A stretch of 64,000 nt of DNA from Shigella phage Sf17, in sequence record MF327004. One strand, given 5' to 3'. Shown here piece by piece: positions 3,218 through 34,587 of this stretch. How positions within the stretch are numbered: position 1 is the stretch's first letter; each line of letters starts with the position of its first letter. A model generated the notes under the pieces. That model worked only from the letters and a program-made list of their open reading frames with translations. It was not told the origin of the DNA and searched no databases. The position numbers were made by a program, and so were the translations under genes.

Positions 3218-3693
3218 ACTTTAATCTGATACTTTGAACGTTGGTAATCAACTGTGATATAACCATCATAACCTACCAACCATCTTCCACCACGACTGAA
3301 TACCGTGTCTAAATCTGCACTATTAATATCACCTTCAAAACCACAATCAGGAACTTCCCTCTCAATCTTGATAGTTGCTACTACCAAATCTGTATGAGTG
3401 TCTCTAATCATGTACACAGTGTTTGTTTTAATGGCACTTTCATGCTCTTGTTCACGTAAGTCATATGGTGCTAACAAGTCTTTATCGGCTTGTAAGTGAG
3501 ATTCTGAAAAAGCTGCATGAACCATGTAAGCTTCTGAACACTCCCAGATAAAGCTATGAAGAAGAACCTTTGCAGCATGTCTTGAACAACCAAATTCTGC
3601 AACGATATCTTTGTACATATCATCTTTAGTTCCGTTGTTAAGCAAAGCTTTACGCACTATATCTTTAACATTCTTCATCTTTCCAATCCTCAT
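3214..3693 (-). CDS. hypothetical protein (start trimmed from 3729 to limit overlap with upstream gene)
   Basis: ORF 3214-3729; internal ATGs at 3693 and 3678 each follow a GAG-rich ribosome-binding site. Confidence 0.4.
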   Translation of the reverse strand: MRIGKMKNVKDIVRKALLNNGTKDDMYKDIVAEFGCSRHAAKVLLHSFIWECSEAYMVHAAFSESHLQADKDLLAPYDLREQEHESAIKTNTVYMIRDTHTDLVVATIKIEREVPDCGFEGDINSADLDTVFSRGGRWLVGYDGYITVDYQRSKYQIKV

Positions 3694-3961: not shown

Positions 3962-3977
3962 AGATTTTCCTCTAAAC

Positions 3978-4000
3978 AGGGGCTTTTACACCCCTTGACA
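3978..4000 (-). promoter_or_regulatory. intergenic hairpin AGGGGTGTAAAAGCCCCT (minus-strand copy of the element at 631-648)
   Basis: Reverse complement of 3978-3995 matches the hairpin at 631-648; lies between two minus-strand genes. Confidence 0.4.
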
Positions 4001-4002
4001 GA

Positions 4003-4212
4003 TTACTCTTCAACAGATTCTTTATCTTTCTTTGAAGAAGCCTTTTTCTCTTTCTTCTTAGGCTCAGTTGCTGCAATAGCAATGTCAACAAGCTGTGCTA
4101 AGTCAGACTTAATCACTGTTACTGGTTGTTCGTTGTAGAAACCTTTCTCAAGGTACTCTTTGAACTCTTCCAGAGTGTTAAAGCCAAAAGGCTTGACAGG
4201 TGTTCTAATCAT
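4003..4212 (-). CDS. hypothetical protein (69 aa, Lys/Glu-rich C-terminus)
   Basis: ORF in minus-strand block. Confidence 0.45.
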   Translation of the reverse strand: MIRTPVKPFGFNTLEEFKEYLEKGFYNEQPVTVIKSDLAQLVDIAIAATEPKKKEKKASSKKDKESVEE

Positions 4213-4789: not shown

Positions 4790-5004
4790 TGTTCAATCCT
4801 CTTTAATCGTGCATTCCACTCTCTGTCAATCATTCTCTGGAATGTCTTACCTCTGGGAGTAACGTTCTTAAGTGATTCTTCAGTACATACTAAGATATCA
4901 CCTCTGGCAATTTTGCCATAACACTGTTTAGTCTTCTTAGCTCGTCTGTACTGCTCAGAAACAGAGAGCTTCCAGTATTCACCTAAAGTTGTAAACTTTT
5001 TCAT
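4786..5004 (-). CDS. hypothetical basic protein (72 aa)
   Basis: ORF with 4-nt overlap to neighbours. Confidence 0.45.
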   Translation of the reverse strand: MKKFTTLGEYWKLSVSEQYRRAKKTKQCYGKIARGDILVCTEESLKNVTPRGKTFQRMIDREWNARLKRIEQ

Positions 5005-5811: not shown

Positions 5812-6405
5812 TCAAGTATATTTTCTAGGCAGTAATTTACTTTTTCTGCTTCGAACATCTTCAAGGATAGCTATGAAGTCATCAGAAGCACCCTTCCAAG
5901 GGCTGAAGTTTGGGATATGTTGGCGAATAGCTTCAATAATCGTCTTCATACCTGTGTTCTTCATCCACCAATCTGAGCTTGAGGCAGTCATAACAAAGAA
6001 CTGCTCATCATCGGTTAAGATGACCTCTTTAGTGAATGGGGAGGTGTACGTGGTGATAACTGAACCACCATTCATGTAATATGTACGCTTGTGGACTTTA
6101 TCAAGCATATCATGTAGGTCACCAAACAGTTTCACAACCTCTTGGTGGTTAATGTCTTTCTCAAGGTCTAAACGGTACTTCAGAAGTGCTTCATCAACTT
6201 CTTTAGATGAGAACTTAAAGTACTGTACATCTTCAATGATACATGCAGAGATGTTGTTCACATCCATAGTCAATTTGACAACTTTTGCTGGTGAGTTAAT
6301 GTTTGGCTGGAACGCAGCAAGCACACCCTGAACATTACCGTAGTGTTGGACTAATGCAACTTGTGGAGAATCAACTCCACCCTTTTCTTTAATGTGTACA
6401 CTCAT
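5812..6405 (-). CDS. hypothetical protein (197 aa)
   Basis: ORF in minus-strand block. Confidence 0.5.
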   Translation of the reverse strand: MSVHIKEKGGVDSPQVALVQHYGNVQGVLAAFQPNINSPAKVVKLTMDVNNISACIIEDVQYFKFSSKEVDEALLKYRLDLEKDINHQEVVKLFGDLHDMLDKVHKRTYYMNGGSVITTYTSPFTKEVILTDDEQFFVMTASSSDWWMKNTGMKTIIEAIRQHIPNFSPWKGASDDFIAILEDVRSRKSKLLPRKYT

Positions 6406-6406
6406 A

Positions 6407-6757
6407 CTATAACTTCCTCACTAAATACTTTTTAAGTGGTGTCTTTGGTTTTTCAAAGACCTCAATAGAATCTATTTTGATGCCCTCACCACGCATACCT
6501 GTGGATTGGTAGATGTAGAACTCAAGCATCCCTATATTTTTAGCTGGCATATCATGCTTAACAAAGATGGTCACTGACTCTTCACTTTTAAAGATTACTG
6601 TACCATCTTTATACACAAGCTTATCAGGTTGTTTATAGTCAAGCATATCAAACATCAGAAATAGTCTTTGCTGACATTTGTCCAGCCTTGTTGACAGGGC
6701 TTCTTGTATATCTGCAAAATTCTTATAAACAACGATGTGGAGCTTAAGCATCTGCAT
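6407..6757 (-). CDS. hypothetical protein (start trimmed from 6844)
   Basis: ORF 6407-6844 overlaps upstream gene by 100 nt; internal ATG at 6757 removes most of the overlap. Confidence 0.4.
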   Translation of the reverse strand: MQMLKLHIVVYKNFADIQEALSTRLDKCQQRLFLMFDMLDYKQPDKLVYKDGTVIFKSEESVTIFVKHDMPAKNIGMLEFYIYQSTGMRGEGIKIDSIEVFEKPKTPLKKYLVRKL

Positions 6758-7419: not shown

Positions 7420-7822
7420 AATAACCTCTCTCAGCTTTCTCAATTTTATCCAGAAGTTTGATACACTCATTGTTATGGTATGTAGCCTCACTCTGGTGTA
7501 ACTTCTTCTTCTGCTCAAGTAGAAATTTATAGTAACCTGATAACTGCTCTCTTGTCAAGGGGTGTTCTGAAATAATATCAAGAGAACTTTCACCTAAAGG
7601 TGAGAACATACCATTGTCATCCACGTTGTACAGTTCACCAGCAAAGAAGCCTTTGTTAGCCATTGTGATAGGTGAGCGTTCAATGACCTCAACAACAAAC
7701 TTTGTGAACACCTTGTCACCCATAGTAATCAACTTGGTTCCTGCAATACGAACCTTCATACCACTTCTTGTGTACTTGAAAGTACCATTATCATTCGCCC
7801 AAAGCTTCATAGTTTTCTCCAT
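7412..7822 (-). CDS. hypothetical protein (136 aa)
   Basis: ORF immediately downstream of endolysin. Confidence 0.5.
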   Translation of the reverse strand: MEKTMKLWANDNGTFKYTRSGMKVRIAGTKLITMGDKVFTKFVVEVIERSPITMANKGFFAGELYNVDDNGMFSPLGESSLDIISEHPLTREQLSGYYKFLLEQKKKLHQSEATYHNNECIKLLDKIEKAERGYYE

Positions 7823-11276: not shown

Positions 11277-12692
11277 ATGAGCGAATTATTTAAGCACTCG
11301 CATTTACATGCAGGTTTAACTGAAAATGGTGCTGTTAACCACACCTCTTCAATGTCTGCACTGGTAGATTTCTACAAAGCTGCTGGTTCAAGCAGAACAA
11401 ATGTAGAGGTTCTTCCAAACTTGTTTTACAAGGCAATGCGAGAAGATATTGATGTAGCAGTTCGAATCCTGTTACATATGCGAGATGCACGAGAAGGTAT
11501 GGGTGAGCGTAAAGCGTTCCGTTATACTCTTACTAAAGCAATCTCTGACGGGATTCTTGATGAGTTCCAAGTATTACGTATCATGGACAAGATTTCTGAT
11601 TTAGGTCGTTATGATGACTTTAAAATCTTTGTTGGTACACGTTACGAAACAGATGCTTTCAAGCATTTAGAATCGGCACTGTTAGACCCTGCAACATCGG
11701 CTCTGGCAGCAAAATGGTTACCACGAGTAAAATCACGACACATGCGTTTTGTTCGTCGTTTCTGTAAGTTTGCAAATCTTTCAGAGAAGCAGTATCGAGT
11801 TCTTCTGTCAGCACTGTCTGACACTGTTGAACAAAAGATTTCAGCAAATGAGTTCGGAGAGATTGATTACAGCAAGCTTCCTTCACTGGCTGCTGCACGT
11901 TATCAAAAACTCTTCAGTCGTAAAGATGGTGAGCGTTATGCAGCATACATTGCAGCACTGACTAAAGGTGAGACAAAGATTAATGCTGGTGCAGTCTACC
12001 CTTATGACATTACAAAGTCAGTCGGTTATGGTAATGCAACCGTTGCAAATGAGCAGTGGAAAGCTTTACCAAACTGGATGAAAGAGGGTGAGAACATTCT
12101 GTGCATGGCAGATGTATCTTCATCTATGACTTGGGAGCGACATGGTTCTGTTACAGCGCTAGACATTGGTGTATCTTTAGCCCTGTACGTTTCAGAACGT
12201 AATACAGGTTGCTTTAAAGATGAATTGATGGTTTACTCTAGCAGACCTCACTTCATCACATTGAGTGGTGATTTACAGACTCGCTTACGTCAAGTGAAGA
12301 GTCATGTAGAGTATGGTTCAACTGACCTACAAGCTGCTTTTGCAAGAATCCTTGAGATTGGTGTTAAAAACAACTTGACTCAGAAAGAGATGCCTAGTAA
12401 GCTTATCATCTTCTCTGATATGCAGTTTAATCAGGTTGATGGAGCAGATGGTCGTACTAACTTTGAAGCAATTCAAGAAAAGTACAAGAAAGCTGGATAT
12501 GAGATGCCACAACTGGTATTCTGGTACTTAGCAAACCGTAACGGTACTTGCGAAGTGTCTGTAAAGGATAACGGTGTAGCGATGGTATCTGGTTTCTCTC
12601 CAGCCACTTTAAAAGCTTTGCTTGGTGGTGAGAAGTTTGACCCTATCAGCGTAATGCTCAAAGCAGTAATGGTTGAACGCTACGATTGGTAA
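11277..12692 (+). CDS. von Willebrand factor A (vWA) domain protein with MIDAS motif; N-terminal ~270 aa unassigned (possibly TROVE/Ro60-like, unverified)
   Basis: DxSxS motif in CMADVSSSMTWERHG followed by vWA-like alternation of hydrophobic strands; 471-aa ORF. Confidence 0.55.
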   Translation: MSELFKHSHLHAGLTENGAVNHTSSMSALVDFYKAAGSSRTNVEVLPNLFYKAMREDIDVAVRILLHMRDAREGMGERKAFRYTLTKAISDGILDEFQVLRIMDKISDLGRYDDFKIFVGTRYETDAFKHLESALLDPATSALAAKWLPRVKSRHMRFVRRFCKFANLSEKQYRVLLSALSDTVEQKISANEFGEIDYSKLPSLAAARYQKLFSRKDGERYAAYIAALTKGETKINAGAVYPYDITKSVGYGNATVANEQWKALPNWMKEGENILCMADVSSSMTWERHGSVTALDIGVSLALYVSERNTGCFKDELMVYSSRPHFITLSGDLQTRLRQVKSHVEYGSTDLQAAFARILEIGVKNNLTQKEMPSKLIIFSDMQFNQVDGADGRTNFEAIQEKYKKAGYEMPQLVFWYLANRNGTCEVSVKDNGVAMVSGFSPATLKALLGGEKFDPISVMLKAVMVERYDW

Positions 12693-12710
12693 AAAGTTTT
12701 AAAAAGGGTA

Positions 12711-12739
12711 TTGACAAAGTGTTTAATACCCTTTAATAT
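12711..12739 (+). promoter_or_regulatory. putative sigma70-like promoter embedded in a hairpin
   Basis: TTGACA 12711-12716, 17-bp spacer, TAATAT 12734-12739; flanked by inverted repeat AAGGGTATT/AATACCCTT. Confidence 0.45.
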
Positions 12740-12800
12740 GTTCTACATAGAAACGAAAAAGAAGTTTTCTGAAATAAATCAAATTATTTTAAAAAACCTC

Positions 12801-12830
12801 TTGACAGACACTAAAAAATAGTGTTATAGT
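12801..12830 (+). promoter_or_regulatory. putative sigma70-like promoter for the tRNA array
   Basis: TTGACA 12801-12806, 18-bp spacer, TATAGT 12825-12830, about 28 nt before first tRNA. Confidence 0.5.
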
Positions 12831-12857
12831 TGTTACATAGGTTGTTAAAAAGATTAT

Positions 12858-12937
12858 CTCCGTTTAGCTCAGTTTGGTTTAGCAGCACTTGCTTTGGGAG
12901 CAAGGGGTCGAAGGTTCAAATCCTTCAACGGAGACCA
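12858..12937 (+). tRNA. tRNA-Pro (anticodon TGG)
   Basis: Manual fold: acceptor CTCCGTT/AACGGAG, anticodon loop tt-TGG-ga, T-arm GAAGGTTCAAATCCTTC, encoded CCA. Confidence 0.55.
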
Positions 12938-12944
12938 AATTATA

Positions 12945-13020
12945 TTCCCGTAGACAAATTAGGTAAAGTCAACACCCTTTCAAGGTGTGGTTTGAGGGTT
13001 CAAGTCCCTTCGGGAATGCC
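12945..13020 (+). tRNA. tRNA-Glu (anticodon TTC)
   Basis: Acceptor ATTCCCG/CGGGAAT, anticodon stem ACACC/GGTGT with loop ct-TTC-aa, T-loop TTCAAGT, CCA. Confidence 0.6.
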
Positions 13021-13027
13021 AGTTTTG

Positions 13028-13100
13028 ACAGAAGACCAATTACAGCAAACAAACTTTTCAATTTCGCGCATAGAAATCCAAAAAAGATTTGGTCTGGTCA
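13028..13100 (+). repeat. structured repeat element R1 (candidate small RNA, not a tRNA)
   Basis: Conserved 5-prime cAGAAGACCaaTTACAGCAAACA and 3-prime tttGGTCTGGTca ends that can pair (AGACCAA/TTGGTCT); AT-rich interior. Confidence 0.45.
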
Positions 13101-13108
13101 TTAAGAAT

Positions 13109-13185
13109 TGCGGGTATAGAGAAAGGGTGTCTCACATGTCTCATTAGCATGTTATCGGTAGGTTCGACTCCTACACCCGCCTCCA
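13109..13185 (+). tRNA. tRNA-Met (anticodon CAT)
   Basis: Acceptor with 6 bp plus terminal mismatch, anticodon loop ct-CAT-ta, T-arm GTAGGTTCGACTCCTAC, CCA. Confidence 0.45.
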
Positions 13186-13190
13186 AATTT

Positions 13191-13260
13191 ACAGAAGGCC
13201 GTTTACAGCAAACACTTAAAATTTTTTATAGGCAAAAAATGAAAAGATACGGTCTGGTAA
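13191..13260 (+). repeat. structured repeat element R2
   Basis: Same conserved ends as R1 (cagaaGGCCGTttacagcaaaca ... atACGGTCTGGTaat). Confidence 0.45.
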
Positions 13261-13269
13261 TACTAACAT

Positions 13270-13346
13270 GGTTAGGAAGCACATAAGGCATGTGCGGTCG
13301 GCTGTTAACCGAATGGTACAGGGTTCGAATCCCTGACTAACCGCCA
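13270..13346 (+). tRNA. tRNA-Asn (anticodon GTT), unusual D-arm
   Basis: Anticodon loop ct-GTT-aa, T-arm CAGGGTTCGAATCCCTG, acceptor ACTAACC-G-CCA; D-region forms 5-bp hairpin GCACAtaaggcaTGTGC. Confidence 0.45.
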
Positions 13347-13410
13347 AGATTTGGGAGAGAAGCGATTGCTCACCGATTTGTAAGGTGCAAGTCCTTAGCC
13401 TGAATAGAAT
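13347..13410 (+). other. tRNA-like fragment (T-arm-like AAGGTGCAAGTCCTT without acceptor or CCA)
   Basis: Contains T-arm-like hairpin but no complementary acceptor strands were found. Confidence 0.25.
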
Positions 13411-13415
13411 AAAAT

Positions 13416-13503
13416 GCGTCGTTATCCCGTAGATGGAAGCGGTGGTGACTGTAAATCACTTGTCATTATGACTCGGGAGGTTCGACTCCTTCACGGCGCA
13501 CCA
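13416..13503 (+). tRNA. tRNA-Tyr (anticodon GTA), long variable arm
   Basis: Acceptor GCGTCGT/ACGGCGC, anticodon loop ct-GTA-aa, extra arm, T-arm GGAGGTTCGACTCCTTC, CCA. Confidence 0.5.
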
Positions 13504-13509
13504 AATAAA

Positions 13510-13586
13510 GGTTATGTAGTTTAACTGGTCAAAATACCTCCCTGTCACGGAGGATGATGAGGGTTCGAATCCCTTCGTAACCGCCA
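13510..13586 (+). tRNA. tRNA-Asp (anticodon GTC)
   Basis: Acceptor GGTTATG/CGTAACC, anticodon stem CCTCC/GGAGG with loop ct-GTC-ac, T-arm GAGGGTTCGAATCCCTT, CCA. Confidence 0.55.
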
Positions 13587-13616
13587 AATTTGAGAGGGCT
13601 TTTTAGCCCCTCCCTT

Positions 13617-13648
13617 AAAGAGTTCTTACGAGTATTCTTTAAAGGAGC
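13617..13648 (+). repeat. palindromic spacer element cttaaagaGTTCTTACGAGtattctttaaagg
   Basis: Related copies at 14541-14570 and 16778-16805. Confidence 0.4.
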
Positions 13649-13724
13649 AGAAGACCAAATACAGCAAGCAATTTTAATATTTCAAGCCAATTTAATTTGA
13701 AAAATTTAAAACTTGGTCTGGTTC
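13647..13724 (+). repeat. structured repeat element R3
   Basis: gcAGAAGACCAAatacagcaagca ... acttGGTCTGGTtcc. Confidence 0.45.
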
Positions 13725-13734
13725 CAACAATTTT

Positions 13735-13865
13735 ACAGAAGACCGTTTACAGCAAACAATAAACAATCTATTTCTCTGGTAAAGAAAAGGCGAAGGTTCG
13801 ATTCCTTCACACGTTACGGCGTGTTGGTGTAATGGAAGCACTTAAGATAAATACGGTCTGGTAAT
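13735..13865 (+). repeat. structured repeat element R4 (long variant containing a tRNA T-arm-like hairpin GAAGGTTCGATTCCTTC)
   Basis: Same conserved ends (cagaAGACCGTttacagcaaaca ... atACGGTCTGGTaat); ~110-nt interior includes a perfect T-arm mimic and hairpin ACACGttacggCGTGT. Confidence 0.45.
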
Positions 13866-13868
13866 CCT

Positions 13869-14001
13869 CTTTGCAGTGACTTATGGAGCTAACCAGTCGT
13901 CCCATGAGTGCCGAAGAGTCTCTTGAGCATGATTCTAGATTAGCTTACTAAGAGATGACTCTACAAACCCTTTAGCAAGGTTTGCGTAGGTTACTGCAAA
14001 G
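13869..14001 (+). ncRNA. candidate structured small RNA S1 (closed by 9-bp helix CTTTGCAGT/ACTGCAAAG)
   Basis: Terminal 9-bp inverted repeat about 115 nt apart plus internal hairpins (GAGTCTCTT...AAGAGAtGACTC; CAAACCctttagcaaGGTTTG); no ORF, no tRNA fold. Confidence 0.35.
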
Positions 14002-14011
14002 ATGATTTAAT

Positions 14012-14087
14012 GGAAGTGTAGCAGAATGGTGATGCGGCAGACTTTTAATCTGACAGGCGACGGGTTCGAATCCCTCCACTTCTACCA
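14012..14087 (+). tRNA. tRNA-Lys (anticodon TTT)
   Basis: Acceptor GGAAGTG/CACTTCT, anticodon loop ct-TTT-aa, T-loop TTCGAAT, CCA. Confidence 0.5.
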
Positions 14088-14092
14088 AATTC

Positions 14093-14159
14093 GCCCCTTA
14101 ACTGAAGAACACATGCGCGGCTGGAAACACCCACTCAATCATTTCTCTACAAAGGGGCA
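14093..14159 (+). other. hairpin-bounded spacer element (GCCCCTT ... AAGGGGC, ~55-nt interior)
   Basis: 7-bp inverted repeat enclosing a non-tRNA sequence. Confidence 0.3.
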
Positions 14160-14168
14160 ACTTATAAT

Positions 14169-14247: not shown

Positions 14248-14323
14248 GCTGGTATAGTTAAGAAGGTTATAACACTCCCCTGATAAGGGAATATCGGTGG
14301 TTCGATTCCACCTACCAGTACCA
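14248..14323 (+). tRNA. tRNA-Ile (anticodon GAT)
   Basis: Acceptor GCTGGTA/TACCAGT, anticodon loop ct-GAT-aa, T-arm GGTGGTTCGATTCCACC, CCA. Confidence 0.6.
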
Positions 14324-14337
14324 AATTTCATAAAGTT

Positions 14338-14367
14338 GTTGACATTAAGATGTGACCACTTTAAGAT
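14338..14367 (+). promoter_or_regulatory. putative internal sigma70-like promoter within the tRNA array
   Basis: TTGACA 14338-14343, 18-bp spacer, TAAGAT 14362-14367. Confidence 0.4.
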
Positions 14368-14571
14368 AACCTTAGTTTTCGTTAGCGTAGCGTCTATTTT
14401 AAAAACTTAAAAATAAATGCAAACGATAATGTTTTTCTGGCAGTAGCTTAATAGGCTAAACACCAGCAGGGTATTCCAACCCCCTGTTAAAGAATTTGGC
14501 GTACTAGCCCACGGTATGATTAATAAAGTGGGCATCTTTAAGGGTTTTCTAAGAGAGCCTTTAAAGATAAT

Positions 14572-31826: not shown

Positions 31827-34587
<2,761 letters not shown>

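Follow-up and report, generated by a model that had tools for sequence, protein, structure and literature searches.

Four copies of a structured element, R1-R4, stand among the tRNA genes of Shigella phage Sf17, downstream of a gene for a protein with a predicted Ro60 fold, and we consider it probable that they are Y-RNA-like small non-coding RNAs and putative partners of this Ro60-like protein. The DNA analysed, called the window below, is a stretch of 64,000 nucleotides (nt) from record MF327004. Our reading builds on what we observed of the repeats, their structure and covariation, the fold of the protein and the linkage of element and gene across phages. An earlier note on this DNA, made from its letters and open reading frames (ORFs), had described R1-R4 as conserved structured elements interleaved with tRNA genes; it lacked the identity of the Ro60-like protein, the Y-RNA-like class, the outer helix of the elements, the true nature of the R4 insert and the breadth of the family.

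R1-R4 share a two-helix frame

The sequence AGAAGRCCNNWTACAGCAARCA occurs exactly four times in the 64 kb, each time on the plus strand (at 13030, 13193, 13649 and 13737), compared with a mean of 0.09 copies, and never four, in shuffled sequence; the four copies are real. Each is followed after 37-97 nt by NNGGTCTGGT, and the 3' ends GGTCTGGT lie at 13091, 13251, 13715 and 13855. ARAGORN finds 26 tRNA genes in the window, between 12858 and 17892 and all on the plus strand, and its placements bear out the interleaving that had been described: R1 is flanked by tRNA-Glu and tRNA-Met, R2 by tRNA-Met and tRNA-Asn, and R3 and R4 both lie between tRNA-Asp and tRNA-Lys. The gap between R1 or R2 and the adjacent tRNAs is only 4-8 nt. 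The studied region is 99.9% identical to that of Shigella phage Sf15 and Escherichia phage 3HA14, both of which are Felix-O1-like phages (Ounavirinae, Mooglevirus), and it is conserved across 266 phage records.

A common frame appears in the minimum free energy (MFE) folds of all four copies and consists of an outer 4-base-pair (bp) helix, an AGA/G internal loop, a 7-bp helix, a single-stranded motif and an interior. The inner helix, AGRCCNN/NNGGUCU or, in general form, A-G-N5 / N5'-C-U, is the pairing of AGACCNN with NNGGTCT proposed in the earlier note, and its two innermost pairs covary (AA:UU vs GU:AC). The note's wording of the element captured the general pattern and missed the outer helix, which is UGAC/GUCA, UUAC/GUAA or GAGC/GUUC in the window copies; it also does not describe R2, where the variant AGAAGGCC leads to a G.U pair in the inner helix, or R3, which carries AAATACAGCAAGCA and ends in GGTTC. 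The segment that follows the inner helix, predicted to be single-stranded, is UUACAGCAAACA, with the core UACAGCAA. In R1 (13026-13100, 75 nt) the outer helix pairs 13026-13029 with 13097-13100, the inner helix pairs 13033-13039 with 13089-13095, and UUACAGCAA occupies 13040-13048. We read R1, R2 (13189-13260, 72 nt; inner helix AGGCCGU/ACGGUCU) and R3 (13645-13724, 80 nt) as short Y-like RNAs, with interiors of 37-45 nt, and R4 (13733-13864, 132 nt) as a long, YrlA-like RNA in which the same frame surrounds a permuted tRNA mimic. All four are on the plus strand; the minus-strand folds have no consistent structure between copies. That the elements are neither tRNAs nor coding, as had been stated, also held up: R1-R3 have no tRNA features, and the ORFs across the region (65 amino acids (aa) on the plus strand, 42 and 49 aa on the minus strand) are not credible as genes and overlap tRNA genes.

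Conservation within the Ounavirinae was followed in 64 element copies from 17 genomes. The outer helix pairs at all four positions in every copy, through six pair combinations, with UUAC/GUAA, UUGC/GCAA, UGAC/GUCA and GAGC/GCUC as compensatory forms. Six variants of the inner helix contain G.U pairs; since these would be C.A mismatches on the other strand, only an RNA of the plus strand fits. The frames (0.82-1.0) are as conserved as the tRNAs (0.71-0.95), and the interiors of R1 and R2 drift (0.59-0.69).

The upstream gene encodes a protein with a predicted Ro60 fold

R1-R4 begin 334 nt and end 1172 nt downstream of the stop codon of a gene on the same strand (11277-12692, plus strand), which encodes a protein of 471 aa with matches to Pfam DUF2828 and DUF7788 and to PHROG 850, annotated as 'RNA-binding protein'. 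In its AlphaFold model (42 homologues; pLDDT 88) a HEAT-repeat ring is joined to a C-terminal vWA domain with a MIDAS, as in Ro60 and the TROVE-vWA family. When this model was compared with the PDB by Foldseek, each of the eight best matches was a Ro60 structure that aligned along the whole length (E-values of 1e-7 to 2e-5). The MIDAS residues D279, S281, S283, T349 and D381 are invariant. The modelled protein is thus of the Ro60 fold. At the level of sequence, Pfam TROVE gave no match, DUF2828 and DUF7788 being the only families reported, and the sole match of the family profile to PDB sequences was a weak one to the vWA region of Ro60 (E 0.78).

By tblastn the family is present in 708 phage records, which include Felix O1-like and T4-like phages, phages of Listeria, Staphylococcus and Campylobacter, and mycobacteriophages. 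The mycobacteriophage homologues, 33-35% identical over the full length and likewise assigned to DUF2828 and DUF7788 by Pfam, are annotated as 'Ro-like RNA binding protein'. Plant homologues of DUF2828 are indicated by a GenBank note on a gene of phage Aeh1, which records similarity to Arabidopsis T31B5.30.

The frame accompanies homologous genes in distant phages

Even where the protein shares only 30-50% identity, phages carry the frame beside the homologous gene. In Klebsiella phage KP13-16 (50% protein identity) 680 nt separate the gene from a tRNA array, and five elements of the form GAAGnn-UUACAGCAA...nnCUUC-UG lie in this gap; Campylobacter phage F358 (37% identity) has two directly upstream of the gene. 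Scanning 88 loci with gene homologues for a 6-bp stem, WCAGCAA, the stem complement and then UG gave 117 matches on the gene strand and 8 on the opposite strand, compared with 2 and 8 in the reversed-sequence control. A covariance model seeded with 20 elements, none of them from Ounavirinae, gave 55 matches with E<=0.1, distributed over 42 of 71 loci; every match was on the gene strand, and most lay within about 500 nt of the gene. Applied to the window, the same model placed R2 (34.8 bits, E 1e-5), R3 (31.7 bits, E 5e-5) and R1 (29.2 bits, E 2e-4) as the top three. R4 gave a partial match of 16.8 bits to this short-form model, which does not capture the long forms. A weak match on the minus strand at 6558-6613 (21.7 bits, E 0.014), far from the Ro-like gene and with GUACAGUAA replacing UACAGCAA, is probably due to chance.

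The family consensus is AAAG-N5-UUACAGCAA...N5-C-UG. Standard pairs occupy 98.6% of the stem positions (35-56% in slid controls), a statistic that is partly circular because the seeds of the model were chosen for complementarity; 121 positions had changed on both sides, and all seven pairs covary. At the first stem position, 49 of the 50 sequences have a G-C pair. Covariation across related phages, which the earlier note had named as a check, is present, in the outer helix of the Ounavirinae as well as in the stem of the wider family. A frame that is conserved and covaries across distant phages, clustered beside the vWA gene and on its strand, upholds the note's view of R1-R4 as members of a family of small structured RNAs and fits binding by the upstream vWA protein, which the note had proposed to test. 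This family is not curated in Rfam 15, nor is it annotated in the GenBank records examined, and a literature search of incomplete coverage found no description of it, the motif returning small interfering RNA (siRNA) sequences only.

The constant neighbour of the elements is the Ro-like gene and not tRNA genes: of 43 loci with elements, 27 are free of tRNA genes in the stretches fetched, which reach up to 5 kb to each side of the gene, and 16 contain a tRNA gene. In KP13-16, L028, L058 and L076 elements stand within a tRNA array or at its start. Within 50 kb of KP13-16 the short-form model reached E<0.01 only for the two short elements beside the gene; it placed nothing in the tRNA array (16.3-23.8 kb) and gave a weaker match at 32109 (21.3 bits, E 0.013).

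A different arrangement is found in T4-like vibriophages, where the Ro-like gene has one copy of the frame as its 5' leader. In the KVP40-like loci L024 (about 4960-5000) and L027 (about 4920-4965) and in L006 (about 3965-4005), the start codon lies within the 3' stem strand and the Shine-Dalgarno sequence in the loop (GACAUU-UUACAGCAA-...GAGGAA...-AAUGUC). Leader-type copies are also present in L034, L039 and L029, where the frame stops a few bases short of the Shine-Dalgarno sequence. The layout is a classic one for translational autoregulation by ligand mimicry and suggests that the protein would bind a mimic of its own RNA ligand.

A third subtype of interior, neither tRNA-like nor a simple AU-rich segment, has a conserved CCUUUCCGGAGGGGAAAGCAAAAACUCGCCAAAA (L025 2103-2197, L029 3134-3233, L032 4708-4806 and L053 4735-4829). 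Many short elements have A/C-rich, G-poor interiors in which AGCAA or the whole of UACAGCAA is repeated two to three times (L033 6794-6851, L074 4795-4851, L075 6728-6784 and L057 4795-4844); to judge by their sequence, these look like multiple binding sites.

R4 encloses a circularly permuted tRNA mimic

The interior of R4 is made up, in order, of an anticodon-like hairpin (UUUCU-CUGGUAA-AGAAA, 13771-13787), AGGC, a T arm (GAAGG-UUCGAUU-CCUUC, 13792-13808), an acceptor-like hairpin with a UACG loop (ACACGU-UACG-GCGUGU, 13809-13824), a UG that corresponds to U8-G9 (13825-13826) and a D-like arm that includes GG (GUGU-AAUGGAA-GCAC, 13827-13841). This interior is a complete mimic of a tRNA permuted at position 26/27, with its acceptor stem capped by a loop. 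The T-arm mimic recognised in the earlier note is thus part of a whole permuted tRNA-like module, and the insert that the note had put at ~110 nt is smaller: the interior measures 97 nt, about 55-60 nt more than in R1-R3. The Rfam tRNA model scores the anticodon, variable and T portion of R4 at 28.8 bits (threshold 29).

The order of modules recurs in 11 relatives, the acceptor-like stem of R4-type elements shows compensatory variants (ACACGU/GCGUGU, ACUCGGC/GUCGAGU and ACCCUUC/GAAGGGU), and the T and D arms keep the nucleotides of tertiary interactions. T arm, acceptor-like hairpin and D arm modules are also found in three of the five KP13-16 elements. The long elements of KP13-16, the viral contig L026 and two mycobacteriophages, Lolly9 and JoeDirt, which sit directly beside the gene, match Rfam YrlA (RF02553) with 37.7-39.8 bits (E about 1e-5), far under the gathering score of 69 bits; R4 itself has no match to YrlA at E<10. 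Lolly9 has three framed elements (short, YrlA-like, short), each of the form GGACnnn-(N)ACAGCAA...nnnGUCC-AG.

In the Michonne-like L009, GCCA directly follows the acceptor-like stem. More generally, several lineages have an acceptor-like stem of 7-8 bp and then an encoded NCCA (GCCA or ACCA), which makes a literal permuted tRNA (L009/L010 at about 7460-7580, L026 4376-4506, L049 7155-7289 and KP13-16 (L004) 5831-5974); like the YrlA of M. smegmatis, such mimics might be cleaved by RNase P to give two halves that are paired. The NCCA form is present in the Michonne-like phage even though its Ro-like protein is 96% identical to that of the window. The anticodon-like loop of R4 (13776-13782) evolves faster than the flanking sequence: it reads CUGGUAA in the window as in one of the KP13-16 elements, AGGGUAU in the Michonne-like genome, either CCGGUAA or CGGUAA in genomes of Felixounavirus, and CUUAUAA in ESh20 (L001), which is otherwise 99.8% identical.

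A model for R1-R4 and its alternatives

Two sigma-70-like candidate promoters, found by consensus match only, precede tRNA-Pro on the plus strand: TTGACA-17-TAATAT at 12711-12739 (10/12) and TTGACA-18-TG-TATAGT at 12801-12830 (11/12). The next plus-strand promoter-like site scoring at least 10/12 is at 14339, and no terminator-like site occurs on this strand before 18017. We infer the expression, binding and function of R1-R4 from this setting and from the comparisons above. The four RNAs would be transcribed together with the tRNA array from the promoters at 12711-12830 and excised by RNase P and the 3' processing of the flanking tRNAs, release by tRNA maturation being proposed because R1 and R2 lie so close to their tRNA neighbours. 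The terminal helix would protect the ends of the released RNAs. Judged by conservation, the module recognised by the protein would comprise the outer 4 bp, the AGA/G loop, the inner 7 bp, closed by A-U and G-C, and UACAGCAA; the variable interior would be an effector module, a tRNA mimic in R4 as in bacterial YrlA and AU-rich in R1-R3 as in YrlB. Ro60/Y RNA/PNPase complexes are known from Deinococcus, Salmonella and Thermus phage phiLo, and by analogy the resulting ribonucleoproteins would gate the ring protein or tether it to host exoribonucleases or tRNA-handling enzymes. In infected cells they would serve to survey structured RNA or to degrade it, with tRNA-related molecules as the most plausible targets. 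The 'processing or recognition modules' of the earlier note find a partial counterpart here, in that release probably occurs by tRNA processing, but the 27 element-bearing loci that have no tRNA gene nearby do not fit a role in processing.

Several results weigh against this assignment. In R1-R3 the interior hairpins do not exceed those of shuffled sequences in stability (z-scores of -1.0 to -1.9), and 29 of the 71 homologous loci have no element within about 5 kb of the gene. The low YrlA scores of R4's relatives, the lack of a YrlA match for R4 and the partial circularity of the pairing statistic count in the same direction. The family consensus uAAAGGaUgcUUACAGCAA lacks GNCGAAN0-1G, the published motif for Ro binding; by inspection, the (N)ACAGAAG of the R elements fits this motif only with a one-base insertion. 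Finally, the known direct binder of the Dictyostelium Class I RNAs, which the phage elements resemble (see below), is the RRM protein CIBP/Rnp1A and not a Ro-like protein.

Other explanations account for parts of these observations. R1-R4 could be trans-acting, base-pairing small RNAs or sponges for a host RNA-binding protein, with the Ro-like protein as a mere neighbour or a nonspecific chaperone; the exposed UACAGCAA and AGCAA words would then serve as seed or binding site, and host targets would carry sites complementary to UUGCUGUA. The predicted single-strandedness of the motif, its two- to threefold repetition in the interiors of other lineages and the binding of similar Dictyostelium RNAs by an RRM protein all suit this idea. 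It leaves unexplained why the elements keep so strictly to the neighbourhood and the strand of the Ro-like gene from lineage to lineage, why leader copies cover the start codon of that gene and why a YrlA-like tRNA mimic is nested in the frame; we consider it unlikely. It is also improbable that the elements are mere punctuation of tRNA operons, recognised by RNase III, RNase E or RNase P so as to shape the maturation of the tRNAs, and give no independent RNA. The short distance of R1 and R2 from their tRNAs and the elements at or in the tRNA arrays of KP13-16, L028, L058 and L076 are what such modules would predict, but most element-bearing loci lack a tRNA gene in the stretch fetched and retain the Ro-like gene, the short-form model places nothing in the KP13-16 array, and a cleavage site needs neither a conserved 8-nt single-stranded motif nor a tRNA mimic.

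A purely cis-regulatory role, in which the elements are operators that control expression of the Ro-like or a downstream gene through the protein or the ribosome, accommodates the leader-type copies directly upstream of the ORF, above all those of the vibriophages that overlap the start codon. The window copies are placed quite differently, well past the stop codon and split from each other and from ORFs by tRNAs that are to be excised, which makes this role quite improbable for them. As for decayed tRNA genes, scars of recombination in the tRNA array or DNA-level repeats (sites for protein binding or recombination), the tRNA-model score of part of R4 and the tRNA pseudogenes that some GenBank relatives annotate somewhere in the wider region 12700-14100 point that way. 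We reject a tRNA-pseudogene reading for R1-R3, which have nothing of a tRNA, and find it insufficient for R4: the frame is kept between phage subfamilies while its stems covary, the T and D arms of R4-type elements keep their tertiary nucleotides and the acceptor-like hairpin shows compensatory changes. The G.U pairs and the complete strand bias argue for an element of RNA rather than DNA, and we judge this last group of explanations very improbable. The assignment of R1-R4 as Y-RNA-like partners of the Ro60-like protein is therefore the one that we prefer.

If correct, it provides a concrete candidate RNA partner and a recognition motif for a large uncharacterised protein family (DUF2828/PHROG 850), and the Ro60/Y RNA system would gain a divergent branch that uses a docking code of its own. 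Phage tRNA arrays would carry passenger non-coding RNAs that annotation has overlooked or miscalled as small ORFs or tRNA pseudogenes. The proposed system would also bear on how phages handle tRNA and structured RNA in infection, which is relevant to anti-phage defences that cleave tRNA.

Other features of the region

In the record of ESh20, minus-strand 'hypothetical proteins' are annotated over the R1-R4 region (at 3359-3487, 3993-4142 and 4108-4206). These small ORFs and the tRNA pseudogenes in the wider region of GenBank relatives are likely annotation artefacts.

Between R4 and tRNA-Lys, the plus strand at 13865-14011 folds into a closed multibranch structure of 147 nt with a long terminal stem (MFE -49.1 kcal/mol, z -5.07; 0 of 200 shuffles fold as well), which is unannotated, 64% conserved in Ounavirinae and without an Rfam match. 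Two spacers of the tRNA array also fold far better than shuffles on the plus strand: 14088-14168 (z -3.69) and 13587-13647 (z -3.92), the latter 95% conserved in Ounavirinae and starting with a G+C-rich hairpin directly after tRNA-Asp. Matches to transfer-messenger RNA (tmRNA) families were seen at 14263-14505 on the plus strand (tmRNA_permuted, 30.4 bits; alpha_tmRNA, 20 bits) and in the form of a tmRNA-like, tRNA-like piece in KP13-16 (L004 6390-6465; 31.6 bits), all below threshold; the viral contig L075 has a full tmRNA gene according to ARAGORN.

Comparison with known RNAs

An Rfam scan, the other check that the earlier note had named, returns only tRNAs at gathering thresholds; below them are matches to RF01414 and, in relatives, to YrlA. 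Y RNAs are encoded on the strand of Ro60 and no more than 4 kb from it; each species has at least one that mimics tRNA, usually together with a second, shorter one, and mycobacteriophages carry Y RNAs (Chen et al. 2014, PMC4201824). The Ro60 of Thermus phage phiLo binds two Y-like RNAs and the host PNPase (PMC12135203). By architecture R4 fits YrlA and R1-R3 fit YrlB. Like these RNAs, R1-R4 lie close to a gene of the Ro60 fold on its strand (within about 1.2 kb, inside the ~4 kb range of Y RNAs), have two ends that form a terminal helix and occur as several RNAs per locus, one with a tRNA-like domain and the others short; the T arm, D arm and capped acceptor-like stem of YrlA are present in R4 and absent from R1-R3. 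They differ from YrlA and YrlB in that the phage module is an A-G-stem, UACAGCAA and C-U-G instead of GNCGAAN0-1G, in that the partner belongs to Pfam DUF2828/DUF7788 and not to Pfam TROVE, and in that four copies are interleaved with tRNA genes, R4 keeping an anticodon-like hairpin.

With metazoan Y RNAs the phage elements share a terminal helix made from both ends and interrupted by a bulge or internal loop, which in the metazoan RNAs is the docking site of Ro60, while the variable loop recruits other factors (in part after PMC12135203). The metazoan docking helix, GGUCCGA/UUGACU, has no sequence similarity to the phage ACAGAAGACC/GGUCUGGU, and metazoan Y RNAs are transcribed from RNA polymerase III genes. 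The tRNA cluster of phage T4 contains small stable RNAs of unknown function, 'species 1 and 2', which are co-transcribed and co-processed with the tRNAs; we know of no Ro-like gene beside them.

At relaxed thresholds RF01414, the Class I RNAs of Dictyostelium, is the sole Rfam family that resembles R1, R2 and R4. It is also the only one that aligns with R2 end to end (22.2 bits); when the 83-nt R2 element was compared with all 4227 Rfam families, RF01414 gave E 0.018 and the runner-up 10.5 bits. Two KP13-16 elements score 24.4 and 23.6 bits, and the phage scores as a whole (17.6-24.4 bits) do not reach the gathering score of 41.5 bits. Class I RNAs, about 60 nt long, have a 6-bp terminal stem that covaries and is free in sequence, apart from an invariant first G and its partner C. 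Their ends, AAG and CUGU, are conserved around a variable remainder, and the stem is adjoined by an 11-nt motif, CCUUACAGCAA, in which U3, C6, C9, A10 and A11 are nearly invariant; they were reported to be absent outside Dictyostelia (Kjellin et al. 2021, PMC7919456). A pull-down with one Class I RNA recovered CIBP, an RRM protein, GuaB, NdkC and the uncharacterised DDB_G0281243.

The design of the phage elements agrees with this description nearly to the nucleotide. A covarying 6-bp stem joins their ends, with the nearly invariant first G-C pair; UUACAGCAA or WUWCAGCAA directly follows the stem, CAGCAA does not vary in the seed alignment, and each of the five key positions is present; the G of a 5' AAG is the first stem base, the stem is adjoined by (C)UUACAGCAA, and the C of the 3' stem strand is followed by UG. 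They likewise have an AU-rich variable part of about 30-45 nt, a total length of about 60-70 nt, a GC content of about 30-35% and many paralogues. The phage flanks, (G/A)AAG and C-UG-N with a variable fourth base, are genomic and were compared with the Class I ends from DNA alone. Class I RNAs differ in being encoded by dictyostelid nuclear genes with a DUSE promoter about 60 nt upstream, while the phage elements are part of a sigma-70-type tRNA operon. The resemblance may reflect chance, convergence or shared ancestry, and it is with considerable doubt that we put forward the idea that phage and Class I RNAs belong together as a single kind of RNA that binds DUF2828-type Ro60 paralogues. The mechanism of Class I RNAs has been open since 2004, and we know of no link between them and a Ro-like protein; the phage elements thus provide a testable hypothesis for their function. 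If it is true, a eukaryotic Ro-like protein would have Class I RNAs as its Y RNAs, and viruses and eukaryotes would share, or have exchanged, an ancient module for protein recognition in the form of the AG-stem/UACAGCAA/CUG frame.

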